Shown piece by piece: positions 1 to 58,195 of a DNA stretch of 64,000 bases; position 1 is the stretch's first letter, and each line of letters starts with the position of its first letter. Origin of the DNA: Promethearchaeota archaeon (lineage in GTDB: Archaea; Asgardarchaeota; Lokiarchaeia; Sigyniarchaeales; SOKP01); the NCBI GenBank assembly GCA_048940605.1, contig JBHLOJ010000001.1, positions 9,185 to 73,184 on the forward strand, in the 5' to 3' direction. The translations under genes were made by a program, and so were the position numbers. The notes beneath the pieces were generated by a model that did no database searches, was not told the origin of the DNA, and saw nothing but the letters and a program-made list of their open reading frames with translations.

Positions 1-3000
1 CTCAGACTGGTCAAGATTCGTGCTGTTAATATCGATACCTTTTGGGATGATACTCTTCATTACACCTGTATATATGCCGGTTTTTGCAACCACTGAAACC
101 ACACCACCAGTATTTATACCTTCCTCTAACAATTCATTATATCTTAATGAGCTAATCACAATAGGCTGATATAATGATGAAGCAGGCTGGGTAAGCGAAT
201 ACCTATCATCTGTACCATCAATGAAAATATACGCAGGACGTCCGTTAACACAGTAAGGTCTTACGGTATCATATTTATTGCCTGAAACAACTTCCACTGC
301 ACTTTCCAAGAATCCAAGGGTATTATGGGGATACTTCGAATAAACTCGGGTACGAGTGGTATCCTTATAAGGTGTAAAGCCATAAAAGTTCATCCCGTTA
401 TATGCAGGTAGCTCACTGGTAACTAAGAAATAATCGAGGTTAGTGTAAGCAGAAAGGGATTTATCTAATACTTCTCTTATATTTGCCAAATCTTCAAAAT
501 TAGCAGCAGAACCTAGAAGTCCAAGTAACACCAACCTACCATAAAACTTAGAATAATCATCATAACTACCTTTAAACCTTAAAGCTTTTGGTGGAGTAAC
601 TATGGCTTGGGCTGTAAGTAGCCCCTCACTATCCCCAACCGGTATATATTTTGCATTTGGACTGCCATGATGATGTTCCCATAACCCATAAATTTCATCA
701 CTTCTTTTATCACTCATTATCGTAGGATCTGGAGATTCAATGGGATATCCTTCAGCATTAAGCGGCATATATATCTGAGAAGCAGCTCTCTCTCGTTGAA
801 TTTGCCGTTTTTGATCTTGAATCCAGACGGATGCACTGAAATAGACAACAGCAAAAGCAAAACCGGCAATCACCCCTATACCTGATGAAGAAAGACCTGC
901 AATGGTCCCCAGAATTGAAATTCCCGCAGCCACACCTCCTGCAACACCCATCGATAAGACTTGTTCATACAAATCGCTTTGCATGCCATCCTTATACATA
1001 TTCCAAGTTGAGCCATAGACTTGAGTATAAACTTCATAAAATAATCTTGGGGCATAAGCATTGATATTTTTTGCAGGGTTAAGCTTTGAAATATCAAAAA
1101 TATGATCCTTTGGAACAAATTTGTCAAATTCAGGCAATTCAAACTTAGCTTTTTCCATAAAAGCATCCATCTCTTCGATATCATTATGAAAGAGTGTACC
1201 CTCATGCTCTATCTCCCATTCAAACGATTTAGAAACAAATGAGAACCCAATTGGATCATTTTCATCTAAGACTTGATAAGGTGTGAGATCATGTTTCCCA
1301 TCATAATTATACGCAATGGAAATGACATCATAAATTTCATCATTATCCTCATCAGGAAGAAGTATAAAGATAGTTTCGTAAAAGCCATTTGAATCTGAAT
1401 CATAATATAGATAATGTCCTTGAGTTTTTGCTACGTCATATGTAAATGCATACTTATCGGAAGTGTAATACACCAGACCATCCGATGGTGTAACAAAAAT
1501 TCCTAGAAGTTTAAAATTGGTTGTCCCGACAATACTACCTGCCTTAGGACTGGGTTCTAGATAATCCCAGTATTGGCTAAATCGATTGTGAAGACTAATG
1601 GTGATGGTCCTTTCTAATGTGTTTTCTACTTCTGGTTCATTAGCATCATCTTGGGTAGTAACAGTTTCAAACTTGATAGGTGCGTTATCTATACCCCACG
1701 TTTCTGTACTCCAGTTTAGTTGTGAGAGATCAGCTACCACAAATAATGGAGCCTCTATTTCAAACTCTTGATCCGTGTCTTCATTGGTGACTGAGAGTGT
1801 TTTAATATCAGACTCAAGCCGAGTATCATCAAATGTATCAGCAAAATTATTTGCATAGCTACGGACTTCCACCAACTCACCATTTTCCCAATCGCTATAG
1901 GTAAGAGTTTCTTGAGTAATTTGGTCAGTATGATATATTGTCCGATTCACTTCACCAAATTTAGTATATGTTTTTTCAATCCAAGCGATAATTTTCTCTC
2001 TACTCAAGACATCTGGAAGGTTCGTATAATCTTGGGTTTCTATATCTTCTATGGTAAGATAATTGATAAAGGAAAGAAAGTCATTTTTGCCATAGTAATC
2101 AAGACTATCGTCTCCTTCATCTGGATCCTTAGATTTAATCTTCCGCGAAAATTTTACAAGACCCGTCCATTCATTTGCAATAGTTTCAACAGCGAATGAA
2201 TCTGTTACTTTTTCATAGGCCACATGCGTGTCTGTTAACCCATCGAAATCAATATCGAGAGTTACAGCGTAAAAGACCGTCCTTGTGGTACGGTTGGTAT
2301 AAAGTGTCTCTTGTACTCCTCTTTGTGCATATACGAGGTAAGCTTTACCTGTACTTCGATAGTCAAGACAAAACCATCGCGTTCTTTCCTCTGAAGTTAC
2401 CTCTTTGTCAAAAGTGTGTTCAATGAATTCAAAATCTTGAATAATGCGATACCAGATGATATCACCTGACGTAGAATTCATAATGCCGTATTTAGTAATA
2501 TCTATCCTTCCATCTTTTTCTATATCAATTTCTTGCTTATAATCAACTTCTCCATCGCCATATAGATCCGCTTCATAAATAGTATTATATGGATCTTCGA
2601 CAACCTCAAAATGGAGATAAGATTCACTTGTATCATACCCATTAAGGCTATTATTGACACTTAATTGAGCATTCCGAGTATAATCTATTGAAGCAAACGA
2701 TGTGTAATCAGAAACAATTGTTTGGGCATCTTCCGCAAAAAAAAATTCAGGACTATCTTCTGTGTAATAGAAAGAAATGACAAGATAATCGTAAAATGTC
2801 GCTTCGATATCAGTTAAATAGGTTTGATTGAAATAATCGGAAAGAATGATCTGAGTCCTTTCAGATACAGGTCCTGCGGTGAAATTTACAACTATAGTAA
2901 TAAGGTTAAATTGATTTAATAGCCCATCACCAGAATCTAAATCAGTGATGGTTATATTTTTACTTTGAATATCAAAATCGATGTCATAATTAACACTATC

Positions 3001-6000
3001 ATTTACAATTTCGGTTTTCGTAAGGTTTGGATATAACCCAACTATCTTAAATAATGAAAAATTAAGGAAATCTTCGATAAAATCATACTCAGTTTCAAAA
3101 ATATAGGAATAGGAACTTGAATTATCATAGACATTAAACGATTCCGTATAATACTGAACTACATCGTAATCAGAATTATTATTGACAATAATCTCGTCAT
3201 ACCACTCTTCATAATGGGCATCAAGTAAATATTCTTCATTATACACTAACTCAAGGGAATAAGCATCAAGATTTTCATAGTTAAGATCAATAATGGCGTT
3301 CCACGAAATATTTAGGCAATATTCGAAATAAAGGGTGCTATTTGGATCGACCATTGCAGGGAGTTCAATTTGCATTCCCCAATACTCTTGAAATTTGTCA
3401 AATCCGCTGTTCCACGTAAAGTCTCCTGTAGTGGTGTTATAGAGAAGCTGATACTCATCTCCTGAAATTCCTGCGGAATAGTAATTATAATTTTCATCAT
3501 AAATTTTCAGATATTCTAACCATTTTCCTTCATCGGCATCATCATAAAAGAGGGGAGTGTTCTCCAAAGTAAGTTGATACTCATCAGATTCAGGATTAGT
3601 ACTGGACATAACATTCTCGCTTTCTGTGTACTGCCATATTCTCGAATTGAAAAATTCAAAAGAATCAGCAGTTCCTTGAGCTTCTTGAAAGATAGCAACT
3701 TCATGGACGGTTAACTCATAGCCCGGATTTGGAACAGAAAAGAGGATATGAGAAAAATTTAGATATCCCTCTTCATCTGTAAAAGATTCAAGGGTAGTTA
3801 AGTTGATATCGATGAGTATGTTCATATATGATCCTAAGTATTCCGTATCAAATGGAGTAAGCTGAAGAGTGATATTGTAGCTGTATGGGGCGGTAAAGTT
3901 ATCATACGATTTGATATCCTCAGTATTTATTAACAAACATTCTGCTACACTTGGTAAGGAATCATAATCATATGGTTTCTTATGGAAATAGCATTTTTCA
4001 AATCCAATTTGGATTGCTTTTTCTACAGGAGTATTATAACGAAGGACAAACTCATCTCCACTCTCAAAGGTGCATACTTCATCAGGATTATCGGGGTTAA
4101 TATAGATGCTTGGGATATGTAGGATATACATATCTCTGTCAAATAGGTCTTGCTCTATCGTCCAGTCAAATGAAACATCGTCTGGAAGAGCTAAATACTC
4201 TAATTTATTATTGAAAAGGTAGGCAACCTCCAAAGAACTTTCGTTAATAAAGAGTGTATGGCTAAGGGGGAACTTCATTATTAATTGTCCATCTTCGTTT
4301 TCAACAGCTTTCAGGCTATCCCACTCTATAAACTCAAACTGAGGTATCCCAATTACATTATCAATACTATACTCATCATCTTCTCTAAACTCAGGGAGGA
4401 TGTGAATCGAATACAAATCCTTATTTTCTATGAGATCTATCTTGATATTGTAATCCCACTTCATTATATCTTCTACTGATATTGTCTGTTGAGCAAAACA
4501 GCTGGTAGCATCGTATAAATTAATGGTAATATTATCTAGGCACTGAATGTTTTCAAACACAGTGTTCATGTATAGCGACAAATATTCATCATTCCATAAC
4601 TTTGTCTTTATTTCATTAGGTAACTCATCTACTAAATCAAAAGCTACCACTTCATCAGGTTCTAAGAAAGCTGTAACCTGAGTAGCATAGCATACCGAAT
4701 CAGTTTCAGTACTTAGGCTTTCATCAATATAATAATATGCGTTAAAATTCGGAATCATGTCAAATTGTTCTCCATTAAGAACTTCCCAGTTTGTAAGAGC
4801 TAAATTATCTGTTATATCTTCATCCTCGGGATCAAAAGTATATCGATATGTGAATTGAGTATAATCTTCTGGCTGGATAATTACTGAAACATAGAACTCA
4901 GTAAAAGCATTAACAGTCACAATAATATTTCCGTCATTCTTCAGAGTAACTGTATGTTCATTTGGATCTACCGTATAACTGTCTCGATCTAAATATTGTT
5001 CAGTGCCAAATTGGTCATAATAATACACGAATACTGCTGGATCTTCCTCATCGTCGACAAATTCAGATACATACTTATCAAAATTATTTTCCATATAGGT
5101 AAACACGAAGTTTTGCTCATTATAATCAAATTCAAACTTTTCTTCATAGCATTCTCTCTGATTTAGGCGATAGCTTAAGTAAAGTTGATACGTATCGTTG
5201 ATGGAAAAAGAGTACTCAAATGGAGAAATGATAGCACTTCCCGATAGCTTCCTGAAACGGTCACGATGGACTCCATTATCAGTCACCGAAGTATCATAAA
5301 TGTTAGACGTGGTATCAAACACATTCGTCCACGGATAGATGCACATTAAGAAATGCTCTTCATCAAGAAGCCCTGGTTGAAGTTTAAATTTATAGGTAAG
5401 ATTAATAGATGTTTTATTTGCAATATAACCTTCTTCAGTAGAGTTTCTATCCTGGAAATAAATATAATTATCTTCGATTTTGAGCACATATTTATTAAAT
5501 TCTGAGGTATCATTCGAATAAATTGGATCTTTGCCTGGAATCAAAAGTGTGATATGGTATGCGTCATGTTCTACACCCACATAATCATAGTTGAAAGGTG
5601 TATGACTCAAAGCATATTTTAATTGATCCGAGATAAACTCGATTTCTACAAAGGTATATGAATCTTCTACAAGGTGCCATGTACTTCCCTTATATGTCTG
5701 AACATCCTTTTCAATCTCAGTGAAATTTAGCCAATAATAGAAACTTACATTTTCATCTTGGAAAATCTCATCCTTTGCAACCGGATATTGCAATTTATAG
5801 AGTTCAATGGTCTCCTCATCATTATTATTCCAAATTTCTACATAAATATTCTTAAACATAGCTGTATCATTAAATTGCTCATCGGGAACGATATTAAGAA
5901 TCGAAAATGATTCATTCTCATCCCCATAATACATTACCGTAATATTAGTCTGTATTTCTGGCTGGAAGGTAAACGCATCTTGTCCATTATGGATATAACT

Positions 6001-30000: not shown

Positions 30001-32142
30001 TCTCGCAAACACGAGATCTGGGGAATTAATAGATGATATGGAATTTATCGAAAAAAATATGGTAAAAATATTAAAAAATATTACTATTAATAAAGCAGCA
30101 CGAACTACTTTTGGATTTAATAAGGTTTCTCGGATTGGGTTTTCTCTTTGCTCAGCTTTTTGTCGAGCCTTTAAATAACACCGAATATAAACCGAACTTT
30201 TGAAAGTAAAGAGAATAATAGAGCTAAAAATAAAAACATAACAGATAAGCTGAAACTGTGGTGCCAATACAAACACTCCTACAGAAGCAATTGAGATGAG
30301 AAATAAGAGTATCCATAATATCATAAACTTGTTTTTGTGATACGCTTTTGCTCCTTTATATCGTAGGTTATGTATAGCACTCTTAATCGTTATTTTTTCC
30401 ACGTCTTCTAGGAGATGAGTTTTTTTAGGAATAATCTCAGGAGAATTTTTACTCACGAGATAGCATATACAGATATTCATAAATGGAAGTATCTGAGCAT
30501 AGGTTATTATCCCTTCCGTAAATAAAAGATATCCTATCCATGGAAGCGGGATAAAACTCAATGGTAAGAATAATATCTGCCTTCTCCCTATTATCCGCCA
30601 CCCGTTAAAAAACAGATAAAAAAAGAAAGCAAGACCAACTTGTAAGAGAAAAAATAGAAATTTAATATCTTCAGGGAAGAAAATCGTAGTTGATGAGGTG
30701 AAAGAAAAGAATGCAAGTAAGACCATTCCTAGAATCGATAAAGCTAATCCTATATATTTTACCTTGTTTTGAAAAAATGAAGTTTTGAGATGCTGAAGTG
30801 TCTTTTTTTTAGTCTTATAGTGTTCTAACCTTTCCATTAAAATTGATTCTACAGTCTTCCTATGACGTGCTAAACTGAGAACATGTAATCCGTGCTTTAT
30901 TTTAATTGGAGCTATCTCATCATTAAGATCTTCTTTTAATTTGCTCCGAATCTTTGGATCTTCATTTTCTCCTTCTACTTTAAAGAACGCTTTCAATTTA
31001 TCTTTCTGTTCTCTTAGAAACTTATATTCCCCTTCTGACAAGGAATCTTCAAGGTGCTTGCTATATTCTATATATGTGAGCGTTTTATATTTCTTTTCTA
31101 TCTGTTTGAGCAGAGTCTGAAATTTCCTGATAACAGTAAGTGGATATCCTTTTTTTCTTAACAGTGAGTTATAGCCCTTCTCGTTCCTCATAAGATAGAA
31201 TACATTTGCAAGATTTTTCTTCTCAGATGCAATCTTCTCTATAATTTTTTGGAGATCACAAATAAATAAAGCAGAATATCTTTGCTTCTCTAACAACGTT
31301 ATGTGTTTAGATTTATTTTCTATAAATTCAGTAATATTAGTTGAGCCTGTAAATTCAAGTAGTTCTCTCACTTTCCTATTTCGTTTTATTTGGAATTGGG
31401 GAAGAAAAATTTCCTTTCCCTCGACCATGATAATACCTGAAAAGAATTTATCCAACTGTTCTCTCCAATGATTTTCAATAACAGCATAAAATTCTTTATA
31501 TGATATTGAGTGAACGTTTATAGATTGGGTACAGATATAATTATTATAATACTCTGCATATAACTCAAGGTCTCTAAGAGTTTTTTTGCTATATCCTAAT
31601 TTTTTAAAGATGTGTTTATATCCTTTTTTCAATTGGACAAATTCAACAATATCACCATCGTTGTTATAGCATAAGCAACTAGATTTAAGATGATCTTTAA
31701 TGAACTCTTCTAATTGAGAACCATAAATCTTTTTAACGCGCTCTCTGATTTTTTTATCTCTTTTTGCTAACTTTTTACGCCCTTCCCGGTCTAAAATGGA
31801 TAATCTTTGCAATTCTTTATACTGTCGAAGTTTCACTCTTTGTTGCCGTCGAACTGATGAAAGATCACGATAGGAATCAATTTTCTCTTGTTTGGTTCCC
31901 TCAAAGAGAGGAATACTTTTTATATCTGGTAAAGAGTCATTTTGTTTTATCGGTATTTGAGAGATATAATCTAGAAAGAATGAATTACTTTGGTGCTCAT
32001 ATTCCTTCCATACATTATTAAGGAGATAGATGAATTTTTTTATATCTTCATAATATAAATCTGCGAATGAAGATGTAACATTGGAATTTTGGTCTTTCGT
32101 TACCACTGTATAGACTTTTTTCTTTTCTTTATTTCTACTCAT
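1..32142 (-). CDS. Giant multi-pass-membrane-anchored surface/adhesin-like protein, >10,714 aa; 3' end runs off the window (partial)
   Basis: Absent from the supplied ORF track (no stop inside the window). The minus-strand frame whose codons start at plus coordinates = 1 mod 3 opens with ATG (plus-strand cat at 32140-32142; MSRNKEKKKVYTVVTKDQ...). I found no in-frame stop. I read 32142->~27950 and 1205->1 continuously, plus 14040-14760, 20701-21000 and 25981-26340. I also checked ~20 scattered 60-nt lines (2401, 4501, 6001, 7201, 9001, 10201, 12001, 13201, 15001-15240, 16801, 18901, 19801, 22801, 24001, 27001, 29401, 30601, 31501). All short minus ORFs listed in 1-32 kb lie in another frame (= 0 mod 3). 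The translation is protein-like throughout and includes Ig-like repeats such as DRTPPVFSGTSISNN...WQIILDSAQLSDGYYDITLYAL. About a quarter of the codons were read directly. Confidence 0.85.
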   Translation of the reverse strand, partial: MSRNKEKKKVYTVVTKDQNSNVTSSFADLYYEDIKKFIYLLNNVWKEYEHQSNSFFLDYISQIPIKQNDSLPDIKSIPLFEGTKQEKIDSYRDLSSVRRQQRVKLRQYKELQRLSILDREGRKKLAKRDKKIRERVKKIYGSQLEEFIKDHLKSSCLCYNNDGDIVEFVQLKKGYKHIFKKLGYSKKTLRDLELYAEYYNNYICTQSINVHSISYKEFYAVIENHWREQLDKFFSGIIMVEGKEIFLPQFQIKRNRKVRELLEFTGSTNITEFIENKSKHITLLEKQRYSALFICDLQKIIEKIASEKKNLANVFYLMRNEKGYNSLLRKKGYPLTVIRKFQTLLKQIEKKYKTLTYIEYSKHLEDSLSEGEYKFLREQKDKLKAFFKVEGENEDPKIRSKLKEDLNDEIAPIKIKHGLHVLSLARHRKTVESILMERLEHYKTKKKTLQHLKTSFFQNKVKYIGLALSILGMVLLAFFSFTSSTTIFFPEDIKFLFFLLQVGLAFFFYLFFNGWRIIGRRQILFLPLSFIPLPWIGYLLFTEGIITYAQILPFMNICICYLVSKNSPEIIPKKTHLLEDVEKITIKSAIHNLRYKGAKAYHKNKFMILWILLFLISIASVGVFVLAPQFQLICYVFIFSSIILFTFKSSVYIRCYLKARQKAEQRENPIRETLLNPKVVRAALLIVIFFNIFTIFFSINSISSINSPDLVFARVSQDQRLHPASIDFSSLEYSSYLEDLDDLSINDEFIIKCKISPILGVASLIRVRFIPQKVPPIEGFRLQKYYDVSSEYVNGPKNDYEMITHVPLNTLDLAPGTYKVEVYYSELTGFGFRSASPQTYEIILGRDDLHVVSNEPFPEPIEDGFNYAGVYTFEDEIEGKLCWRIVYDGQIQNSAHENVPLDNLDLYIEESDRFIKISNISTDKKGKFYYSHIVYGSIEQNLLVKIESSCKSEFYNPLSHVEYAGLETDIHGKRFFLDKDDDHYPDWNYDLYDLLKVIASYSEAPPSSSLAFMAEFDEGSGSTTREFINDLEGTIEGNSTWTTGKRGSALSFDGTGTDFVNWSDVLDNDLDNDFVISGWFYPTAFISNESDNGIKNVFFSKAGIIEIGVNETGFAEIYLNTNSVEASATYGYIGAVALNSWNYIALRFNNSGNDVDVLIGDTWCRSALGVTAEPWNSGGTLKEGGDLIIGAETSSFSCFTGILDDLSVFNTSMSDAEIESHSGGPFLAIDVTVSREDGASGWTPITVSGETISGWLNYECNSTGKPIELLEFYLAGTEPDLQNPTPEEWNLFASYSYDDGLYSYVEESYNLPDNGTWYFVAKATDDISNFVYDYYDIYFEIDHFEDLINFTYTDKEGRINHNSQIGINIEDEYQWHISSLDVYINESDEIDFLTSINFTELASDYWLVYLDSLSDWVSTKGLNPDDYDVNFIIEANLIYGSGFPYYTHNYTLDQVILDINPPQMTLFSDDPYSLILGNTYDNIQNNLVSMAINSTSLDFCKVKFEYKYETPTTATWNNYGTFYANNNSLTEIVFNIINLADDNITFRFTGYDTLFNEKTISDGTYWIVKDFNNHELFAIEELEMSKLYGLDQEDMVDINVKVIPFDNDITKITLATSYETFTLTNIVSEQNHIYFEDDGAYDPDIKLNSAYYNIFGSDFTIIPIEIKLYQGTTFITSKKLDIIATSESFSDIVEISNIDVNISAETSNILMSFANNSNAYNNSHKIPFVVKNLPPVLKVYNSYGELVEIIELSAEYDYVESVNYTEVQVSEYRFTLGIPSLPGGDEVCSIEAVKLNGSSYEFSYFIDDQICITLFSQQDLDGVHNFTIDFGISNATHSVNQFIGSYSFQSLPQDNYTMIGEFYDISGEISAYTIPQVFTIDYQGPEIYQQFDVAHPINPESGSISFIIDDFSGVDSYSFNSSIIGWWDVVGTTYTYFFNDTVINEGLTYIQLFSNDTLGFETEFNFTLYFDRTPPVFSGTSISNNVVSDIVQINVTVSDSLDCILEVEFKNEASGLITTAIDYSLIEISNNIWQIILDSAQLSDGYYDITLYALDRAGNSNNTIIHDIYFDNVFSEITLFEEHIYADDKIIYNNTISEIIYFNEEEYLTITAFDEIFDNFDWSQIDQTLEDQLGIKNITFYYTNPLAWYNISIVGSLDYEQFTYEIDGYGDPFTSTQYIKSIQSIKIGNYTIDKFTILLEGTSLLLQIDSQYRYALSSALTGQIYAQFYELVENEIVLQFNNNSKKWDLKSSGNYFNISEYLSLEEGNEFLFWLGVEDGLDNVFISHKMTGVFDNTMEQEPVDQNVFEWSLGTNSTGAGIIIFGSDVYLDSTIQVNVSSVLPTALGEVDVGRIMIYGSNDTYIGRAYYSGAEDIWNYYWDGDLLEALPPENYSLKVLLFDKAGNYLNHSHSVKLYDYTQIKLISDLVFGHIFEYNSSALSNENDIEGYIENFFGNEGLWDIIAQYYNPLEKEWVEMQTDSATILSNGSYSITWDISEDASFMASMYGFSYEYLPLQVTPVKNADLWGSWGLFRSSNEWQPIIISEVSSNIDISIYKFDNQTGWNLDSSLSNESTIASIQDQVFKLWDVNKDKSYEIIRVSASQIDIIYLNDNLDWVIKENVTQLSGYNYITFDVEYDGSTSNSVLISIQKDTSEVYSIWKYCFDTDYDLTYLDDRHTPLNFLPTSVEIENYFSASDRKAILVGGLIEDAYYSQIFEYNFKLELKNVIADSVLGKIVVIEYDKLNGIDTIILGIERLAIGKMDAVNALRRKSGTEEWTDFEITGFDDTKFKIIDLITIADNILEKLVISSESGIFQTTISYSEDATEIVSPICFVFEEYDKAELSPSYYPVIVPEKTPIYIVNHVYYRLAGSNGWNELEFNKIKYSQHEIQLDLQSLWSTLTNIKIAFAFESFESEERVAIDPSFQSYSGTSDTQLISASGIFFEDAKLPFMWLNPGTSYTSPLANWRLLPDFMTYHYSPVISGYGSKVFYPEEVRNELSGDYVTMPELENSLISYGNTYESGELAQYLNSKDDNSREDNFMNNYIDAAFASNPYMSETYNFSDMYYSGIHNELNSSGLYNYYDPEGSANNEQYVYVKNDLADFSVNNSEATQVYKSGAIPISISEEYLKSISFVYVPFSGGHMSGTISDTYFDDTNYVTLHPGGNGQTSYINIFSFNINDSYNSDDFYLSFYLEMEVPQATGELKINGQTYETGATIDCNRELIQDITSISFYSGGEYGYSEAYLYYFEVERITTDSSLMQSPSVSEVEITMLNWSQYITSEKDEDGVFGFQYTYKLPVVSRESIDSIQLSFDASINSISFEGGNYPLSIQLWNFVSEEWESIPLVSLDSSSTYIEDELFYDFWTWHPDGSSPPDDAFRPEWGTLGHNRINSISYGATFPGGVDSNGNIAYDSSFSEGGSFLVNDDTDPQIVQIFTEDGKVMFHDDNDFLGDEHNVNKFQLQNIIINTSSFKTTSEIFPDYDTAESFTLTYFYDYFVNDLHEFKVQIITERESSQNDNDDAYLCVGSFNTYTHTSSNFLNYDEFESVAINGEHVSENIDFTSSGVELYGYSGFNLVEDPQTIKFKDNFLSSSWSLEGVAEDTIYFQNQLASDAYVRSLYPDTNYGNNQYLSTYLLDYSYHFYCSQEPNIFIGSYVSGDRHDTREDDSEMYRVSSVLSGPYFQKTKVRYDVDTGFKTADYHYDVAVDKLSTITISLGDLNGPLEEIESAFGYSLSGTTRKDNNPPGYTYIWVETRSSYSHTTDVDLLTGDDVMEEFETFIETASIGYLVHGDNDEWELEATKGQSYGLPLSLYSTGAFVENTITWNNGRPAEGGLISTQQISGDTISWDLGDMSSENQYFKIDINEYGGYDYEDPVVKYTIGKMHQGGGILYMQTNITEALTLQNHYAYNVTMTPNDQLVLVCTANTNDSIKLALYDNSILAHEFTVIENGNDDFSSQVIVLETDTSLTFDQLKIVGELDSEESFLVNSITMMEGASIVDVKLSEVQFTEQAGVFPRIYNGIGGSSSSFAHIKDDQYYIIDSTNEDYRASVEFEFIIDDADWDDVDSLQVMLIGNPILEDASFSVLSTSYKPINYVQNDDMLVFTVSKDDCAAYDKEEGKYYFTFLIEHDASSSFQLQIDKISLITRKDWSAEHDLYRAAFTFERLGDAQQNDNVTVAISDDIYLNISDNSLNNAGTENIVCFYYNYSSQKWSAFINNEIDDKLNLTDIDPTMAPRIESRYSNENQGIRVHKIESHYYKQISDEIDFEKYKSLVLSYKNKESHADKVLTNSIDSMLTPENLFTQLSADVDIIYSFNDEMTEDNIFSYELVPTYITDYNDNISAYHYNETSLLINTVSSLVNSTVTSFSGDAINITGTLSNLNDMYSNDVEFNTTWITERYDNVTATKSAGVGTPSTATNFDIRDDLAWRNYTVGSLTQQLTITEEYSFTNLPNWTATAVDKELELQIFWDYAWQTSSGSCKIYAMNWGDPGDGDDTYEEVKEITSRGSWVTETISLSSSHLERNSTAYEVKIKIETQGTDSVSPYWNLIGTRIDYIYLDFKKTNAQTSTVNFNFNNLFDGNNDFIIYFRGKTDGFTSKLLVDGNNELSFSSTYSNFESDFLGNIDSVELWIADDGEIFHPSLDDRNLILDYLVVTWLNQPVNISVINEPISLDSSFSHHQNSSSYIDSGMYDDPFFGKNTIQFTLKNTMQTPVFGRNNANAYVDLELLELDLDFEVYPSKSQTPSSFVLDHIDIEGNNASKYPPSVLEDYSEYATSRFRNSAMDDIQIPLLTPIVLDFGLQDMEEFEGGSLELALDLDIALDNRKTDAIWSTRFRLVYYNYSSQQWQDFNGILRAENDGVSQDVWNPGTFSDNHIWYLQNVSKNEYIPISNTNEISISNPITFTTLDNHTVQNGIIQMALISYIIPSNFSIDSDHSNNYFVYERADPKVPITICQTVEVLESVIIAESQEIMYPQATLNVNMPLDENFRVNVSSIENLGEIVAVKGSFIDSNSIFYEYPIFSYWITSEEELVFNSPMKYFFTNITIDYIPQMTLNYSSVDGNWYLPESFASGEVNYTKPFFISNLWVNTTLYGTYVHPNVDVGYTVGMNEDGTFVHFTGSVDPLALVKGDIHFGKVNSKNLYRFALQDELLFQYNILESTTNFTGGSLHLDLNAGFKDVIYSELSQVSCTDYRLTVTINRYNPADETTDLIGTASISLDKSLLGFHNYDLTIDLDQFGFDTSELEMLVEAISRGSIYDLYITIESSVSNCKVDGNLFKGIYGYELLSAHFEIETAESDLTLNGEEVETPYMPISQESILLTKTDASTYSFGQLIYDFGFEIDEVRTDKDVLYEGSDYEFDLSEGIITLINTYRDYSGFLFADITYKAFEWKKGSVSSLDPITLTFNKDYKENITKFLEFVVQYDAIPGYEIDKIDKTTGRLVLSDEEKSAALLTIYMYNFVEEKWDEVRFVVYDDYTGTNSFSYVVDRNFIVFENYFNETTGDQFEIIAVFAVEEGISDCFVSKTHFDITSINASVYYDTPDTEHMINPEVEFDIDLTDYFTDDSVYLEQIEVDLMYSGEIEFDDAFLFSQYALLEEDYNFYIRNNYLDFEEFSLENDIFTLSREQIDQLLYHDIENEKYFIRAKLEYDWNCIIEMNLGSSSKLEIVSTLNLVKYDLSVAYTSYETTRISAQKTNITYDLAEIFGPNYIETESGISVLEDDTEADIGILGGYLRNADTRQRLMVRQQVFYEFNESTSGNFNILLDQEYTDANLRFLIPPGNLIQPENLTEQMFESPEQPEDFILTNGTFQTPYGELDTIDANYSKISSVEDTGHYFATYSFKDEEDGTSGINIDFVDDASIPGGFSAEIEGSYLGHNKVIEMHDGGYGALTLTHDIDPDQSYGTFEWWLGTGPQSIGGQAHYWFLRDSSDTSLFCIRQYTNDWQVYDDLGWYTIEPDVVTASTWYHMRVDFETTTGGYMGLSQYSCRVFIDGEEYGAFNFAENDTVDKICISTPTGTTVFDTYIDAVGMTWDSVYVIGDNNNSENLLDVQIDMEVDTEDSVDFLKYSYKTNESAVIDLDIWNWTSSTWYEVESVMNTVAFDDTSFELGIDSSYVNSTNGVRIRYQGLAASPFQLEIDKLGLNHSYHFKPFLINNTYFMFITDNEVTSVKFYYYNGTADEFIGNMTHHPYLKDVFEYTWNNTIEDTGASTNDTVEVMFFLTDILNNTGSYRYNFIADFTKPTPEISIGNGTESFESNTADPTTSLSFSHGEQKLYTELVRIIDNTMGSTSSWEEFDSSQYTMLDDLGEIPANFTIEYKVIDIAGNEAVNTTYNGDTYSYINFSRKIAISLANDTIDLNLGGNREISFENTEQFNNVEYLDASINGFNYGTAYLDNGYYKLSFGNENSVDTLIGYSDSLISENIYSSIDPLNHISWEVQEDGMFVAVQHVLVDEDIVIMNPIAYTSYATLDLDHLYDREFGLEDYILLDRVFYFNSSDNNNLVHLNTSELDFIVDTEGIVEFPEFSIVHELYENNTDVLDNSIYFEYYSASEVYNQLSLSNADGFFINFTMPSVYYDHTTIETLTISFNDIYDNAFPVGFYDVDLRKYFLDSVKADYEVEIFGLGKMMSIPLYIDLNRIQMSNPYDLFDMRALESISITITDSERWPGSFIQNCSEYSVMNLPYQRVGILDFTLYNLISDEITCDENGHVQSTVRFTSPDYYDFYAETTINIAKLDIEFTNVKAFAYSKQITPQSTVDIEYSDFIEVNYRWNDTLSPVLLNSLYEVPVTLINTSTGEDLAYGIGYWVTRGDVDSLSGYYSKYYYSRFKVPILLSSFNVTFGSHGTPIFNISFIDAPTFIINVTQESVFESDPIYLQETTYELEYGKDLVLDGAIRDNDGYLIEDEVYEYRYQEALDGQTVHRLKAISPFGDPDYIDREEFAIYYLNNNLEVVPLYSTLNGTSYYEGDILDYLNHPTISYVDNAFLLNIYWKKNADNFIDYDTYLLVTYKAVKGKTITPLSYSTLDSYGNDREENLVEIPFAKYDMALKNWIVENDFIEEFIIDKRVLYEEFESSSIIIEGPEYDEGQIIQTGIIDLVNIYVNKSSSEEFEWVNNSDYTWSINQNGELNITGLDYSSGDVYQACYLAYYPVPIPHPLDDSVSQIYSIKVINGTGYEYEFVADQDYTLSEDGYSIYFYDIYNTILESGNFSIYDEFLISYHAPLTRKVDLGLNLLLLQQDSQGNDIPIDTINVESIGMFSYEAILKESGLSLPLGGGRKLVHMALAYLPLSVYNKSSNSLVTIEYEADSGEKRYSHMESNKWVKPFTIITIPEKIKLMMVDDIRQDFVFDQEFDKDRDYIFNYNPAEAIEQGEEYTRVMIDALVNEDYTFSFQLTRDTEGTIEKIENEVVWLQIGLMPKSKSKFLNTRAIINEYGIHPYFEALGTEEITFRGPGTSEISTSKMFGKPLTYEIDGYDTNYTSYGPYIWMWSETNSEGIAEFSVKFDQNYIEDFIDIFGLVEGINSVEDVVLYIRAFNSFDFDWDDLAINTPDQYLCSKDGDVYDGRYQASNYTKSQFQDSTYVEGLIHLHKNHITVASNDYYTYRLPDEDIIDQYEPLTLHLYVHEANPIPDGMNHTLESITAIHDIAELESTGKSVFEDDWTYYAYIDFINPAGNVVESLYKELHETINSGYFTLDNETMVSIINKTGPGISSIRIQIAESDNYLASPYLFVPLEVIGPSYLKFGEKNTKIDLIDPFISAYGSAFDGEDYAPFESNYPHLIGTLWVDANFSGTGTEEEKELSIGDYVEINLMCTLPDEEPFPLREGVMLRPVNREGLLKFDIGLGPEDAYLMSLACSINLSFNIDYNAYQIFSDNRDVVIHLLDLRLEENPSSNTPNAIWSLYENDFDYDTSELKFSIDYEDESIEPDTGAISLGGTENGVDYGLEVEYTYDPEIDEYALDNSSELLTLLELESITPLEVRNESGDEVTDWTIPYSGSQYSLQAQSTVQFDDFDPAPIIKNYSSFTVIYKFDFDFDSKNYANITLGPGLENDLNSSWIEFDLEDGFLPASEDFYSPMFVRYNQTIIGDGDTATFSLDYGINNVDIDEWDDNYFTIYNSSRQGYSTGASNGIPQLTFSPIIASGDKVYVIYGVRSQYELGYGFQKVGKAYSDSVRLIYNNQSANEIKGSSGPISSLTLDDPSLYIGLDNSSTETVLELYSLPLLWAPEINLSIKLDPIIMDQIDSFPTEDNMLLVKFYYVATGGYGSYYTDTIELMLNYTAMEPDLVSETYTIHYNKDLQGLYEAFGAGSLDLYIAISQESNNSNYISYVIIEDFTYLCDEHLVEMYSTMPLDSEGNLDVDAVINTPHFYQILSRPFIDDYYGESPYDLLEDSEITVEVEDLPYSSLVSLDGVSGDYNFNYLGTMETLGISSENFYMIPNLALYTDAYDIDEVLYQDGSVNLYYGSGTEVSGEYDYHKRIYMTYESGKVDDYESSISSGVPTSWEDTFNVTDQFLTTHEIDVSSTILYHQLFDLTSDVIDDGSLSEILGNITGAYFGIQLPDEVSIAHIRAIGAPYEYDLSVQGFPIGKYYDGTYCQVLTSGTSYNFDTRADTQIMNGTTDYSLEFATNGSKYLVFYLSEQDAGDYNISNKIMVDYWVYYTFAEGFDYDIVEDPEEPYVSIIDWDYSITSIDSYSMHPDFANGISFTIDFSALEWNSINNSYIHNGQDAFTFQPEIQTNITVMYYGDENESFSILNIVPDEQFNDTAMFKNIYVEIWNNNDEETIELYKLQYPVAKDEIFQDENVSFYYWLNFTEIEKDVQTYKGSTWHLVEDSYTFVEIEFISDQLKYALSHTPFNYDYVGVEHDAYHITLLIPGKDPIYSNDTSEFNKYVLKIEDNYIYFQDRNSTEEGYIANKTSINLTYKFKLQPGLLDEEHFLMCIYPWTNVFDTTSNIYDTSVTDNGVHRDRFRKLSGSAIISPFEYSFSINDTYQLYLSYRLNQRECYEEKFEFDYNEQNFVFTYMENNFDKYVSEFVDDEEDPAVFVYYYDQFGTEQYLDRDSYTVDPNEHTVTLKNDGNIIVTVNAFTEFYVSVIIQPEDYTQFTYRYTFDPEDEDITDNLALTNWEVLNGEQFDMIPNFNAYYYIDESLSTETDSVCYATQVTAFLEPDEVVAFDLVDELPNEIKTKLWNDEYLSLYMNTVFENIQCLDNITINLYDATSCFAQQTISVEDIMKWDYNIKIDLIENKDLYSIHILPEFREDDEYSIDNVIGIPQFEFIEWDSLKAVENEDGQLIMKFPLSHTLFINESSLEVAYLFNNKLEYLALPDDVSFDWTIEQDLFDRDMYILHIPSIYINPDNPDEVCTFESGDEFVLRYNTPVEKAIQIGFEKCYFHKKPYDYDSLPSVAECLLINTEDIKSYDNFTAPYSYNITLQLTPFDTEYLGSYMNILIDINLTTLESFTDEEGYLNFSHILFSVPNPGYELTVHEVAIFQEAQGTADSFEFFNSRIWQYTESENVMSSTNPESDEYQLTLENTPLFYDDADEGKWLEYLKIYDENYNYYSAGISGDEYQLLYNTTTGDFTWNSGFDKFQEYWGMQIELPAMVDPNSTLYFEYCLNISWNAIIDLNYENLDAYSLELVYNEEYLLDAHYEEWYDEIIVNNNSDYDVVQYYTESFNVYDNSSSYSYIFETEYDFIEDFLNFSLFKIVGLYPNLTKTEIVNDSVNYDIDFDIQSKNITITDLDSGDGLLNQFNLITIVVNFTAGPVSERTQIILSDYFNQTYLTDIEATFYDYLVISFYYTEDSPEFFFAEDAQTIVSDYTSFASIDYTRNAQLSVNNSLNGYDTSESYLHFEVVEDPYNTIYEADLYGDGEVDYKQEIDIEKDGRIDITKYGIMNSTSGDIIWYRIIQDFEFIEHTFDKEVTSEERTRWFCLDYRSTGKAYLVYAQRGVQETLYTNRTTRTVFYAVTLDIDFDGLTDTHVAYEKVTDSFAVETIANEWTGLVKFSRKIKSKDPDEGDDSLDYYGKNDFLSFINYLTIEDIETQDYTNLPDVLSREKIIAWIEKTYTKFGEVNRTIYHTDQITQETLTYSDWENGELVEVRSYANNFADTFDDTRLESDIKTLSVTNEDTDQEFEIEAPLFVVADLSQLNWSTETWGIDNAPIKFETVTTQDDANEPEVENTLERTITISLHNRFSQYWDYLEPSPKAGSIVGTTNFKLLGIFVTPSDGLVYYTSDKYAFTYDVAKTQGHYLYYDSDSNGFYETIFILLPDEDNDEIYDVISIAYNYDGKHDLTPYQVLDENDPIGFSFVSKSFEWEIEHEGTLFHNDIEEMDAFMEKAKFELPEFDKFVPKDHIFDISKLNPAKNINAYAPRLFYEVYTQVYGSTWNMYKDGMQSDLYEQVLSMGVAGGVAAGISILGTIAGLSSSGIGVIAGFAFAVVYFSASVWIQDQKRQIQRERAASQIYMPLNAEGYPIESPDPTIMSDKRSDEIYGLWEHHHGSPNAKYIPVGDSEGLLTAQAIVTPPKALRFKGSYDDYSKFYGRLVLLGLLGSAANFEDLANIREVLDKSLSAYTNLDYFLVTSELPAYNGMNFYGFTPYKDTTRTRVYSKYPHNTLGFLESAVEVVSGNKYDTVRPYCVNGRPAYIFIDGTDDRYSLTQPASSLYQPIVISSLRYNELLEEGINTGGVVSVVAKTGIYTGVMKSIIPKGIDINSTNLDQSE
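841..960 (-). other. Glycine-zipper hydrophobic segment (probable TM hairpin) about 10,400 residues into the giant protein
   Basis: Translation: VLSMGVAGGVAAGISILGTIAGLSSSGIGVIAGFAFAVVY, with G-x3-G spacing (G5/G9/G13, G18/G22, G29/G33). Polar sequence flanks it on both sides (...DGMQSDLYEQ | FSASVWIQDQKRQIQRERAA...). Confidence 0.6.
14040..14640 (-). other. Second LamG-like jelly-roll module in the giant protein (approx residues 5834-6034), same type as in the two clan-CD paralogs
   Basis: Translation: GHYFATYSFKDEEDGTSGINIDFVDDASIPGGFSAEIEGSYLGHNKVIEMHDGG...TFEWWL...TWYHMRVDFETTTGG...CRVFIDGEEYG...TYIDAVGMTWDSVYVIGDN. It is colinear with YPGTYGFEDEIDGTSGTAIDFID...HNKVLHVED...WYHIRIYF...YFDAFGFDWEPGYTIG in ORF 42541..44538. 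Confidence 0.6.
28480..29110 (-). other. LamG / concanavalin-A-like lectin domain inside the giant protein (approx residues 1014-1217)
   Basis: Translation: ...FMAEFDEGSGSTTREFINDLEGTIEGNSTWTTGKRGSALSFDGTGTDFVNWSD...FVISGWFYP...WNYIALRFNNSGNDVDVLIGD...FTGILDDLSVFNTSMSDAEIESH. This matches the remembered Laminin_G_3 pattern (G.ALSFDG...D.V, W.H.A, F.G.iDev.i.n.aLs..EI). Confidence 0.65.
30040..30757 (-). other. Cluster of about 6-7 predicted transmembrane helices in the giant protein (approx residues 462-700)
   Basis: Translated hydrophobic runs: YIGLALSILGMVLLAFFSF, FLFFLLQVGLAFFFYLFF, ILFLPLSFIPLPWIGYLLF, IITYAQILPFMNICICYLV, FMILWILLFLISIASVGVFVLA, LICYVFIFSSIILFTF, VVRAALLIVIFFNIFTIFFSI. 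A ~460-aa K/E-rich non-hydrophobic N-terminus precedes them. Confidence 0.7.
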
Positions 32143-32413
32143 TCTTAACACCTTTCATTTCTAATTTGATGAGTTGCTTAATTTTTTTAATATAAATTGA
32201 AATCCTTTCAGGATGATACTTAATTTGATTAAAATAATGATTTAGCTGATTTTTAGCTATAGTACTAAACTTAGGATTTATCTTTACAACAATTAAGTGA
32301 AAAAATTCTTTATCGGAAAGAGTATCTACTTCTATAACAAGGTCGTTTTCTACTTTATTTTTAGTAGGGAGCTCAAAATTTGGGTGAATGCCATCAATAG
32401 CCACTGTACTCAC
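32135..32413 (-). CDS. Hypothetical 92-aa protein, overlaps the giant-gene start by 8 nt
   Basis: ORF track entry with a GTG start preceded by AAAAAGGTG. Its stop TAG (32135-32137) overlaps the giant ORF ATG (32140-32142) in the sequence ATGAGTAG. No motif recognised. Confidence 0.5.
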   Translation of the reverse strand: MSTVAIDGIHPNFELPTKNKVENDLVIEVDTLSDKEFFHLIVVKINPKFSTIAKNQLNHYFNQIKYHPERISIYIKKIKQLIKLEMKGVKNE

Positions 32414-58101: not shown

Positions 58102-58195
58102 GTCCTACTGGTAGGTGTCGCGTTTTCCAAAACTTTTATATAAGATTCTATATAATTTTCTACATGATTGTCTACACATTTTTGGCGAAAACAAT

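Follow-up and report, generated by a model that had tools for sequence, protein, structure and literature searches.

Positions 1–32,142 on the minus strand of the window (the whole stretch of 64,000 nt analysed here) almost certainly hold the first 84% (codons 1–10,714 of 12,775) of a single functional Promethearchaeota (Asgard) gene, whose 12,775-aa product is a member of a family of giant membrane proteins found in Asgard archaea. Our best reading of this product, a tentative one, is a contact-dependent effector-delivery fibre, with a doubly anchored adhesin as its main rival.

The reading frame starts at an ATG at position 32,142, with an in-frame TGA just upstream (32,155–32,157), and the computed translation runs through 10,714 codons without a stop and is still open at position 1, confirming the frame that the first-pass annotation had proposed. 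Base composition predicts ~793 stops in as many codons (log10 P of none, about −358), and the two other minus-strand frames contain 53–74 and 108–149 stops per 1,000 codons throughout, counted in full blocks of 1,000 codons. The GC1 > GC2 > GC3 periodicity is even throughout the gene. The list of open reading frames shows nothing longer than 109 aa in 1–32,100 because frames that run off the source are omitted from it. The first-pass annotation had seen the frame leave the window, and the end is supplied by an independent Logan assembly contig, SRR30758825_5158 (52,879 nt), which agrees with the window in every one of the 18,358 overlapping bases compared, including those of the first 5.5 kb of the giant gene. 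The gene call on this contig is 12,775 residues long, so that the stop falls 6,186 nt (2,061 codons) past position 1 of the window; these 6,186 nt are known from the gene call, not from sequence. The same neighbouring proteins occur on two NCBI MAG contigs, and when genome and metagenome contigs were scanned with the last 714 aa, the window's own locus did not turn up among them.

Giant surface-protein genes are a known assembly hazard and the sequence comes from metagenome assemblies, both of which would favour an assembly chimera, or a decaying pseudogene, that fuses several smaller adhesin genes. This reading is strongly disfavoured and, in our view, extremely unlikely. The 34%-GC DNA of the gene stays free of stops for 32 kb, and searches for tandem, direct and protein repeats found none in the gene or its product, leaving no site for a collapse or false join. 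The Logan assembly agrees over the shared 18 kb and carries the full-length gene call, while orthologs on other contigs keep the same order across the places where a join might be suspected. Against the orthologs, pN is 0.21–0.45 and pS 0.64–0.81, with pN well below pS in every segment of the gene, and purifying selection acts over its entire length. The first-pass view of one single giant gene is therefore well supported.

The collinear orthologs are 51–60% identical to the giant protein. P0008 aligns with aa 2–2702 at 46–59% identity, and P0001 aligns with aa 5437–10,686 at ~51%, with the stretch of LamG cassettes rearranged, before continuing for 1,379 aa to a real stop. In the closest relative, L007, identity over the last 774 aa is 60%, and the protein extends for another 1,869 aa. 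The last 1,200 aa in the window (aa 9,515–10,714) match ~120 cluster representatives, 58 of them at E < 1e-30. The relatives found come from metagenomes or MAGs, one source being the LCGC14 marine sediment metagenome.

The N-terminal domain (aa 1–463; 30,754–32,142, minus strand) is rich in K+R (20.5%), has a normal number of sequons (four observed versus 2.5 expected) and appears to be cytoplasmic. It has no Pfam match even at E ≤ 5, and is 46–60% identical to its counterpart in the ortholog P0008 (locus L003), which has extra inserted modules. A hydrophobicity scan places a seven-helix membrane anchor directly after it (aa 464–699; 30,046–30,753, minus strand), which is ~65–70% identical to that of the ortholog. 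Its K/R-rich loops 566–606 and 653–678 both fall on the cytoplasmic side, consistent with a positive-inside arrangement. The predicted topology is N-in and C-out, in which helix 7 would launch the export of everything downstream. A cytoplasmic N-terminus followed by a multi-TM block had been described in the first-pass annotation, and both are recovered here.

The ectodomain that follows (aa 700–10,398, ~9,700 aa; 949–30,045, minus strand) is acidic (D+E 16.8%, K+R 5.0%), carries 1.7-fold more N-x-S/T sequons than expected (180 versus 106) and is free of internal repeats (best non-self E 1.7e-4). Over the 10,714 residues, tiled searches of Pfam and NCBIfam found almost nothing beyond one Laminin_G_3 (ConA-like) domain at aa 1056–1218 (PF13385; 28,489–28,977, minus strand; E 1.1e-10, 42.4 bits versus a cut-off of 27.6), and a PDB sequence search with residues 1–5,000 gave no match. 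An AlphaFold model of aa 5437–6636, informative only where the alignment is deep, consists mainly of beta strands. It contains a second ConA/LamG-like jelly-roll at aa ~5836–6040 (14,023–14,637, minus strand; pLDDT 65–92) that Pfam does not detect. The best Foldseek match of this domain in the PDB is the lectin domain of a sialidase (5mqr, E 2.7e-7), and other matches include lectin-like domains of botulinum toxins, PL7 lyases and galectins, with TM ~0.5 to ConA-like lectin or glycanase domains on 230-aa targets. The cassette recurs in the Asgard PKD/LamG giants P0002–P0008. Adjoining it at aa ~6044–6146 (13,705–14,013, minus strand) is a beta-sandwich domain, modelled as all-beta with pLDDT ~57–71, which is a conserved unit of ~100 aa in P0001 and P0005–P0007. 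The LamG/ConA domains proposed for the long extracellular-type middle are thus found, one above the Pfam threshold and one by AlphaFold and Foldseek. The accompanying Ig-like array is not visible: in the tiled searches the only such match in Pfam is a sub-threshold Big_13 (20.1 bits versus a cut-off of 27), besides a weak NCBIfam match to Ca_tandemer (E 0.0066). Divergent beta-sandwiches may lie elsewhere in the ectodomain, beyond the reach of sequence searches.

The ectodomain ends at a conserved C-terminal module that begins with a hydrophobic helical hairpin, TM-A (aa 10,399–10,439; 826–948, minus strand), recognized in a hydrophobicity scan. Its hydrophobic span averages ~40 aa over 26 family members and reaches 49–61 aa in several, and in the model of an ortholog it forms the tip of a long two-helix hairpin. 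A single-pass 'stop-transfer' segment was set aside as the default reading on account of this model and of the span, which exceeds 45 residues in several members. After TM-A comes the start of a conserved alpha/beta domain (aa 10,440–10,714; 1–825, minus strand), cut at the window edge, with the motifs NLDYFL.TSELP at aa 10,568 and NTLGFLE. The window protein carries the motifs that define the family of the module (the TM-A hairpin, NLDY.L.TSEL and NTLGYLE among them); the position of the GHPGAYYT-type motif is divergent in this protein, L007 and P0017 (HHGSPNAKY or ERHPSAKY). The ortholog model of the module (pTM 0.67, pLDDT 80–97) shows long helical hairpins with hydrophobic tips. No match to its fold in the PDB or a viral library was better than E 0.03, the best Foldseek hit in the PDB had E 0.35, and Pfam returned nothing useful for six homologs of the module. 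As modelled, the C-terminal module consists of hydrophobic helical hairpins and an alpha/beta domain without a known fold. The proposal of an N-anchored extracellular array therefore holds for the anchor, but not for the far end, where the module starts at aa 10,399 and is followed beyond the window by a different tail of ~2,000 aa.

As the window's own tail and its LRR gene lie outside the window, what follows on both is drawn from the 60%-identical relative and the family. Tails in the family are 1,000–2,200 aa long with a cytoplasm-like composition (K+R 12–13%, more than the stalk), and they avoid glycosylation sites. Asgard AglB glycosylates N-X-S/T, where X is not P (PMC11284389). In 38 dereplicated tails of relatives (43,793 aa), only two N-x-S/T sites are found where ~334 are expected (N-x(not P)-S, one versus 194; N-x(not P)-T, one versus 140), and both lie no more than 14 residues from the C-terminus. 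The non-glycosylatable N-P-[ST] is enriched (29 versus 11.3 expected), while Q-x-[ST], D-x-[ST], [ST]-x-N and N-[ST]-x are about as frequent as expected. Shuffles, the reversed and shifted motifs, the Q and D substitutes and N-P-[ST] together rule out that a bias in composition caused the loss. Neither the neighbouring proteins in the window nor the LRR partners contain a sequon-free stretch, and their counts are near expectation.

In the family, the drop to zero sequons falls at the second hairpin, and L007 has none in its last 2,408 aa, where 17 are expected. The window protein has one sequon in aa 10,144–10,714, and its count after the hairpin (one versus 2.0 expected) is weak evidence for the switch. 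The part of the alpha/beta domain at +100 to +200 retains sequons at a near-normal 0.81 of expectation, and a plain two-state pattern therefore does not hold. The avoidance shows selection against glycosylation, which is short of delivery into another cell; the sequon-free tail of the relatives suggests a cargo that is handed to other cells.

At least three homology classes of tail stand behind the one conserved module. The classes are few, large and internally conserved, with tails of 1,000–1,800 aa, and the analogy with classic short hypervariable toxins is weakened, as the tails form only ~3 large classes. Some relatives' tails end in a RecB-like PD-(D/E)xK nuclease motif, whereas many carry no such signature. 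In seven aligned tail ends, all from relatives, the signature D...D-x-K-P...P-Q-x3-Y is invariant, with D96, D111, K113 and Q132...Y136 corresponding to motifs II, III and IV. Four of the seven match Pfam PDDEXK_1 slightly below threshold (best 20.1–20.3 bits versus a cut-off of 22), and the nuclease-like end has no PDB sequence match. Among the toxins of polymorphic toxin systems, PD-(D/E)xK domains are common (PMC6393860, citing Zhang et al. 2012).

Directly downstream of the giant gene, 20 of ~26 loci of relatives carry a gene for a leucine-rich-repeat (LRR) protein, all of one homologous family that is the same across all tail classes; 12 of the 20 are convergent with the giant gene. The LRR protein, recognized through matches to Pfam LRR families, lacks both a signal peptide and TM segments and seems to be cytoplasmic. 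Stand-alone genes of the form 'module + tail + LRR' also exist, for example L004.

In a delivery fibre, the N-terminal anchor would hold the protein in the producer's membrane, and the glycosylated stalk, which would measure a few hundred nm if made of ~100-aa sandwich domains, would present the C-terminal module far off. Upon contact, the hairpins would insert into the membrane of another cell and the tail would pass through as cargo, with the terminal RecB-type PD-(D/E)xK nuclease aboard in some family members. The tail would be exported past the oligosaccharyltransferase and would need to stay glycan-free for translocation; this would explain the loss of every N-x-S/T site. The neighbouring cytoplasmic LRR protein could be a neutralising (immunity) or holding partner of the tail. 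Besides the sequon loss, the alternative tail classes, the nuclease signature, the stand-alone cassettes and the LRR neighbour favour this reading. However, the tails are long, few and conserved, unlike the many short hypervariable toxins of polymorphic systems, and a single LRR family paired with all tail classes, whose gene is often convergent and not co-transcribed, is atypical for immunity. The sub-threshold nuclease match also counts against it, and no trafficking, pre-toxin or processing domains of known type were found in the giant protein. In its full form, the proposal would give Asgard archaea a self-contained and previously undescribed means of contact-dependent delivery, in which one polypeptide of up to ~12,800 aa combines new-fold hairpins, a glycan-free cargo and an LRR antidote or chaperone, which we regard as possible and put forward with still more reserve.

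The cytoplasmic look of the LRR partner, together with the cytoplasm-like charge of the tail, would fit a tail that stays inside the producer. This is the arrangement of a doubly anchored adhesin or tether, with both ends in the producer's membrane, a ~9,700-aa loop or fibre that attaches to partners or minerals or serves as an envelope scaffold, and an LRR protein that binds the cytoplasmic tail for signalling or as a link to the cytoskeleton. The hydrophobic segments at both ends of the protein are as this reading predicts, lectin-type ConA/LamG domains in the ectodomain suit glycan binding, and the tails are long, conserved multi-domain regions rather than short toxins. Yet a cytoplasmic tail gives no reason to lose N-x-S/T and to enrich N-P-S/T, an avoidance seen neither in the protein's own N-terminal domain nor in the LRR partner or the neighbours. 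The hydrophobic elements model as hairpins, with an even number of passes that would return the chain to the outside, and the terminal nuclease signature and alternative tail classes would be left unexplained. We therefore regard the doubly anchored adhesin as a serious but doubtful alternative.

Export without glycosylation, as implied by the sequon avoidance, would also be expected of an extracellular capture or degradation device, in which a glycan-free nucleic-acid-binding or nuclease tail is held outside on a long tether and harvests extracellular DNA or other polymers in sediment, where glycans would mask its binding surfaces. The RecB-like signature at some tail ends, the higher K/R content of the tail compared to the stalk and the origin of the relatives, marine sediment included, are in line with this. 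We consider it improbable, as total avoidance over 1,000–2,200 aa exceeds what the shielding of a binding surface requires, the nuclease signature is absent from many tails, and neither the hairpin module nor the conserved cytoplasmic LRR partner finds an explanation.

The delivery fibre, which we continue to prefer, resembles CdiA, Rhs and MafB in having a very long surface stalk, a conserved region and alternative C-termini, some with a PD-(D/E)xK signature, and it shares with polymorphic toxins a neighbouring gene that could neutralise the tail as well as stand-alone C-terminal cassettes. In contrast to these systems, Pfam, NCBIfam and repeat searches detected no FHA, RHS/YD or other known repeats, and the N-terminus has no TPS, PAAR, LXG, signal peptide or T5SS, T6SS or T7SS trafficking domain. 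The protein instead has its own seven-TM anchor in a single-membrane archaeon, its relatives' tails measure 1,000–2,200 aa and fall into few classes, its partners form one, often convergent, LRR family, and no sequence or fold homology to those systems was detected. With MARTX, large clostridial and botulinum- or diphtheria-type toxins the likeness is one of logic only, in that hydrophobic or amphipathic helical hairpins and very long helices come before or flank a cargo that has to cross a membrane unfolded; there is no sequence or structural match, and the botulinum hits mentioned above concern the lectin-like jelly-roll, not the translocation domain.

Halomucin of Haloquadratum walsbyi is a secreted mucin-like protein with repeats and is not known to have an anchor or C-terminal module of this kind. 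The first-pass annotation had expected an archaeal source to make the present protein the longer of the two, and this is the case: the source is a Promethearchaeota/Asgard MAG, and the product has 12,775 aa versus 9,159 aa. Both are giant extracellular archaeal glycoproteins, but the present one is non-repetitive and membrane-anchored. The rarity claimed for such lengths was overstated, since archaeal proteins of >10,000 aa, mostly Asgard, are already published (bioRxiv 10.1101/2023.11.21.568195; PMC11573180; PMC8813620), and the bare size record matters less for that reason. West-Roberts et al. 2023 counted Asgard proteins of >10,000 aa in the bioRxiv report, and the survey in PMC11573180 recognizes, among the 'huge proteins' of archaea, a class that has one Laminin_G_3 towards the N-terminus; both list such giants and call their function not understood. 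Ours is alike in being an Asgard protein of >10,000 aa with one Pfam Laminin_G_3 near its N-terminus and otherwise unannotated, while a seven-TM anchor, a hairpin module, a sequon-free tail and an LRR partner are absent from the accessible parts of those descriptions. Both the size class and the layout with one LamG towards the N-terminus are thus already published, whereas the features in the relatives' tails and the LRR partner appear to be new.

No closer relatives of eukaryotes are known than the Asgard archaea, and those in culture depend on a physical partnership with other microbes. To our knowledge, almost nothing is known of the Asgard surface molecules that mediate contact. The present locus offers a concrete candidate family, with a self-anchoring stalk, a hairpin module, a glycosylation-averse tail and a fixed LRR partner. 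Should the tail be delivered, this would be the first archaeal analogue of the bacterial contact-dependent effector systems, and sequon avoidance would provide a new way of reading the fate of a protein from its sequence, with loss of N-x-S/T and gain of N-P-S/T as a general signature, in N-glycosylating organisms, of exported domains that must cross a second membrane. Without delivery, the 'single LamG' archaeal giants would still have in this family their largest and most clearly delimited example.

In the vicinity of the giant gene are genes for a ParB/RepB-like protein, a NERD nuclease-related protein and an HTH regulator, and several neighbours share 90% identity or more with proteins from a MAG labelled Thorarchaeota; PADLOC found nothing in ten neighbours. 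These genes and identities would suit cargo of a mobile element like the Heimdallarchaeia 'aloposons', in which the giant gene serves the element and not the host, and Wu et al. 2022 pointed out that some giant genes of Asgard archaea may be part of mobile elements (PMC8813620). The giants Otus and Ephialtes of the Heimdallarchaeum aloposon, also of largely unknown function and with partition-type genes nearby, come as tandem pairs of 3,000–6,000 aa beside tRNA integration sites, with a MinD/ParA-like ATPase upstream (PMC8813620). Compared by gene layout, the present locus differs: it has one giant gene rather than a tandem pair, no tRNA gene or Rfam match was found in the 64-kb window, and no MinD/ParA-like ATPase was matched by Pfam among the larger ORFs scanned. 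The gene region is also without long repeats, and the orthologs and the LRR partner are conserved on many different contigs. We consider a mobile element decidedly improbable; this reading is in any case compatible with every functional model.

Upstream of the giant gene lies a conserved gene for a 92-aa protein (32,135–32,413, minus strand), whose stop overlaps the giant ATG by 8 nt (ATGAGTAG). The ortholog locus L003 has an identical 8-nt overlap between its small upstream gene and the giant gene, and the small proteins of the two loci share 38% identity (E 2e-16). Finally, the divergently oriented gene at 32,737–33,051 (plus strand) encodes a winged-helix, PadR/TrmB-like protein (Pfam PadR, E 1e-6, 29 bits versus a cut-off of 27), named HTH transcriptional regulator by NCBI, which from its position is a candidate regulator of the giant operon.

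Translation of the minus strand from the ATG at window position 32142 to position 1 gave 10,714 codons with 0 stops, bearing out the proposal of a 32-kb open frame in the first-pass annotation, and the frame runs off the window edge at position 1 still open. For the base composition of this frame ~793 stops would be expected (log10 P ~ −358), and each full block of the other two minus-strand frames contains 53–149 stops per 1,000 codons. An in-frame TGA lies four codons upstream of the start (32155–32157), and the codon-position periodicity GC1 > GC2 > GC3 is uniform over the gene. The ORF list indeed shows nothing longer than 109 aa here, as had been remarked, because ORFs running off the source are omitted from it. 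A Logan contig, SRR30758825_5158 (52,879 nt), found by exact match of a neighbouring protein, is identical to the window at 18,358 of 18,358 bases of the fetched overlap; its gene call for the giant ORF is 12,775 residues, and contig geometry together with this call places the stop within the contig, 6,186 nt (2,061 codons) past position 1. Proteins of the window's neighbouring genes are also present in two NCBI 'Promethearchaeota archaeon' MAG assemblies, on contigs of 110.9 and 108.3 kb. The gene has no tandem repeats and no direct DNA repeats longer than 36 nt, and the protein has no internal repeats (best non-self BLASTP E 1.7e-4); therefore there is nothing for an assembler to collapse or mis-join, and we regard an assembly artefact as highly improbable.

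Comparison with collinear orthologs gave the same picture. The partial protein P0008 (3,626 aa) spans giant residues 2–2702 at 46–59% identity, and P0001 (6,917 aa, 5′ end cut, real stop), from the Loki's Castle LCGC14 metagenome, spans residues 5437–10686 at ~51%, barring a rearranged LamG-like cassette stretch, and then continues for 1,379 residues. At locus L007, the identity is 60% across the last 774 window residues of the giant, followed by 1,869 more residues to the stop. In 10 of 10 segments compared with orthologs, pN (0.21–0.45) is far below pS (0.64–0.81, saturated), with dN/dS of ~0.16–0.2 where dS could be estimated. The giant is almost certainly a real gene, with its bases read to position 1 and its last 6.2 kb taken from the contig gene call. 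The LamG-like cassette is inserted or rearranged at differing places among the orthologs: P0008 has a ~210-aa cassette (aa 3120–3326) where the giant has none at aa 2407/2412 (window ~24900–24925), and P0001 has ~717 aa (aa 362–1079) against ~477 aa in the giant (aa 5794–6271, window ~13330–14760).

The protein begins with a cytoplasmic domain (aa 1–463) with 20.5% K/R and no family match. A ~65-aa module, LRRY.F.WL...L......L..LATI.YGTNPY...L..L..D, occurs twice in the corresponding domain of the ortholog at locus L003 (407–3406), and the window protein lacks it; thus this N-terminal domain is modular and variable in length. An anchor of seven hydrophobic helices follows (aa 464–699, ~65–70% identity to the ortholog). 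By hydrophobicity scan and topology, both of its K/R-rich loops, 566–606 and 653–678, are on the cytoplasmic side, so the anchor is N-in, C-out, and its last helix is predicted to start export of all downstream sequence. The ectodomain (aa 700–10,398) is acidic (D+E 16.8%, K+R 5.0%) and carries 180 N-x-S/T sequons (x not P) compared to 106 expected, a 1.7-fold enrichment. The only above-threshold match in tiled Pfam and NCBIfam searches is Laminin_G_3 at aa 1056–1218. An AlphaFold model of aa 5437–6636, confident only where a deep alignment was supplied, shows a ConA/LamG-like jelly-roll at aa ~5836–6040, which in Foldseek (best E 2.7e-7) resembles sialidase lectin domains, botulinum-toxin lectin-like domains, PL7 lyases and galectins; a second beta-sandwich (aa ~6044–6146) comes directly after it, and the remainder of the model is of low confidence and mainly strands. 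Hence the LamG part of the array described in the first-pass annotation holds at two places, whereas its Ig-like part could not be demonstrated, with a sub-threshold Big_13 match in Pfam and a weak Ca_tandemer match near aa 2023–2067 in NCBIfam. No ectodomain match to PDB sequences was found over the residues searched (1–5,000). A LamG-like cassette, G.Y..TYSF...TWYH.RIDF...DA.GYSWD..Y.IGDN, is common to the giant and the Asgard giants P0002–P0008.

From aa 10,399 the sequence changes to a conserved C-terminal module, which starts with a G/A/S-rich hydrophobic stretch (aa 10,399–10,439). In exhaustive HMMER searches the last 1,200 window residues match ~120 cluster representatives, 58 of them at E<1e-30, including proteins of 3,900–7,400 aa and many contig-limited fragments, and a metagenome scan added 24 further loci, seven of them from LCGC14. 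The hydrophobic span averages ~40 aa and reaches 49–61 aa in several members, which in those leaves room for a two-helix hairpin. It is followed by an alpha/beta domain of ~350 aa with the strongly conserved motifs NLDY.L.TSEL (at aa 10,568 in the window protein) and NTLGYLE; a GHPGAYYT-type motif is kept in most members and divergent in the window's subgroup. Further hydrophobic helices come after ALAQ.T.Y.I.DYFNQ, then an acidic helix, EEI..DG.IE, with TS.RE, beyond which family members carry a tail of 1,000–1,800 aa. In the AlphaFold model of the module of P0001 (aa 5200–6000, 39-sequence alignment, pTM 0.67) the hydrophobic stretch forms the tip of a long helical hairpin; other long helices are present, and the alpha/beta domain is modelled confidently (pLDDT 80–97). 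Foldseek gave no significant match to this fold, the best E being 0.35 against the PDB and 0.03 against viral models. The giant is a self-anchored glycoprotein with a conserved C-terminal module that looks membrane-active.

The tails of the relatives fall into at least three homology classes. Several end in an invariant D...D-x-K-P...P-Q-x3-Y, a RecB/Cas4-type PD-(D/E)xK signature; Pfam PDDEXK_1 is matched by four of seven such ends at 20.1–20.3 bits, just below the cut-off of 22, and these ends have no PDB sequence match. The window protein, with 2,209 residues after the probe start compared to 2,022–2,250 in the long-tail relatives L007–L013, belongs on length with this group, in which the nuclease pattern was not found. 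An extracellular tether for harvesting nucleic acids, to which nuclease-like ends would be relevant, is improbable as an account of the family. Genes of 0.9–2 kaa that start inside the module, just before the second hairpin, were also seen (L004 10001–15820, encoding P0012; L006 104–3013, encoding P0011; and P0013–P0016). They have the full sequon-free tail, usually an LRR neighbour and no giant gene upstream, and may represent orphan-like cassettes or membrane proteins in their own right.

The tails are almost devoid of glycosylation sites. Among 38 dereplicated tails of relatives (43,793 aa, expectations from shuffles), N-x(not P)-S occurs once compared to 194 expected and N-x(not P)-T once compared to 140, the two sole sites lying 4 and 14 residues from the C-terminus (in P0024 and L008). 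In eukaryotes, sequons at the extreme C-terminus are poorly glycosylated co-translationally, and this may be the reason that these two are tolerated. The non-acceptor N-P-[ST] is enriched (29 versus 11.3), and Q-x-[ST], D-x-[ST], [ST]-x-N and N-[ST]-x are at expectation. Neither the giant's cytoplasmic N-domain (4 versus 2.5 expected) nor the proteins of the window's neighbouring genes (e.g. 10 versus 8.9) show avoidance. With the family members aligned on NLDY, the ratio of observed to expected sequons is 0.5–0.95 in the distal stalk, 0.00–0.25 over the ~400 aa preceding the motif, first hairpin included, 0.26–0.81 within part of the alpha/beta domain, and exactly 0 between the second hairpin region (+300) and +1,400 aa; the last bin counted holds a single site. 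The closest relative, L007, has 0 sequons in its last 2,408 residues compared to 17 expected; the window protein has one between aa 10,144 and 10,714, so that the in-window evidence for sequon loss is only suggestive. The archaeal oligosaccharyltransferase acts on the outer face of the membrane. Since the tail pattern follows the acceptor rule of this enzyme, we infer that the tail would be exported and under strong selection to stay glycan-free. For AglB of an Asgard archaeon this rule, N-X-S/T with X not P, was shown experimentally (PMC11284389).

Of ~26 loci examined, 20 have a member of one homologous gene family directly downstream of the giant or module gene; both orientations occur, and 12 of these 20 genes are convergent. 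Precomputed Pfam matches identify these as LRR proteins (e.g. L001 20747–21607, L004 15924–16910, L007 8046–9026, L009 16236–17717, and 16 more loci), with a common N-terminal motif, FKVN..L.LKL..GKT.IYV....F.QCK.LLL. They have no signal peptide or TM segment, are K/R-rich and have normal sequon counts, and therefore look cytoplasmic. The 1.7 kb after the giant stop on SRR30758825_5158 would have room for an LRR gene. The main rival reading, an adhesin anchored at both ends, with a tail that remains cytoplasmic and binds to the LRR protein, accounts for this partner and for the charge of the tail; however, it leaves the sequon avoidance unexplained, and we consider it rather unlikely. At the other end, a 92-aa ORF (32135–32413 (−)) has a stop that overlaps the giant ATG by 8 nt, and L003 has a matching small ORF (154–414) with the identical overlap, the small proteins being 38% identical (E 2e-16). 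This ORF is conserved as a partner of the giant and probably coupled to it in translation. A PadR/TrmB-like regulator (32737–33051 (+)) is divergently transcribed from the giant.

Contact-dependent delivery is the reading that unites most of these facts, and we hold it tentatively, as something short of an even bet. In its favour are the anchor at the N-terminus, a glycosylated stalk of great length with the hairpin module at its far end, and the sequon-free, cytoplasm-like tail, as well as the existence of alternative tail classes, some of whose ends are nuclease-like, of stand-alone genes for 'module + tail + LRR' (such as L004) and of an adjacent cytoplasmic partner. The stalk would present the module to another cell, the hairpins would insert, the glycan-free tail would be threaded across the membrane, and the LRR protein would serve as an antidote or holding factor. 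Against delivery, the tails are long and of few classes, and one LRR family, often convergent, accompanies all tail classes; the transfer itself would be a proposal, and the tail features on which it builds come from relatives, as the window ends before the giant's own tail. Bacterial CDI and polymorphic toxin proteins would work somewhat alike, but the giant has no known trafficking domain and no known repeats, and the tails and neighbour of its family are atypical for them. That the family represents a new archaeal delivery system is possible, though we lean against it; if true, it would be of high interest.

Wu et al. [quoted passage not shown] 2023 (bioRxiv 10.1101/2023.11.21.568195) describe archaeal proteins >10,000 aa as rare and mostly Asgard. 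In a UniProt survey, a single Laminin_G_3 near the N-terminus is the commonest architecture of archaeal proteins >5,000 aa, with function 'not understood' (PMC11573180). Because these giants and this class are already published, the size and bare architecture of the present protein are not new, and a database entry for it presumably exists too, as GenBank accessions are assigned to its neighbours in the MAG records. In the literature searched we found no description of the C-terminal module that defines the family and has no known fold, of strict sequon avoidance with N-P-S/T enrichment, of the conserved LRR neighbour or of the coupled small upstream gene.

Other genes near the giant encode a ParB/RepB/Spo0J-like protein (40903–42060 (−), named after a cluster-mate at least 90% identical), a NERD nuclease-related protein (35940–36425 (+)), the HTH regulator at 32737–33051 (+) and a response regulator (61228–61914 (+)). 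Several of them have an identity of at least 90% to proteins from a MAG labelled Thorarchaeota; a mobile element in common could explain this, as could an error of binning or labelling. That the giant is cargo of a mobile element, a reading compatible with the others, seems to us quite improbable. The paralogs at 42541–44538 (+) and 45105–47132 (+) (38% identical, E 2e-79), whose products look secreted, both carry the giant's LamG-like cassette (GYYPGTYGFE..WYH.RIDF..DA.GYSWDP.YNIGDN); they have no Pfam match, and their C-terminal domain, with H-G and C-C-H-A-G-G motifs, looks like a caspase/legumain-type (clan CD) peptidase. Finally, a 573-aa protein with an N-terminal signal-like segment and a C-terminal TM anchor (33247–34968 (+), 13 sequons versus 6.8 expected) and a 751-aa NosD/right-handed beta-helix protein (58115–60370 (+), 19 versus 13.8) are likely further surface glycoproteins.
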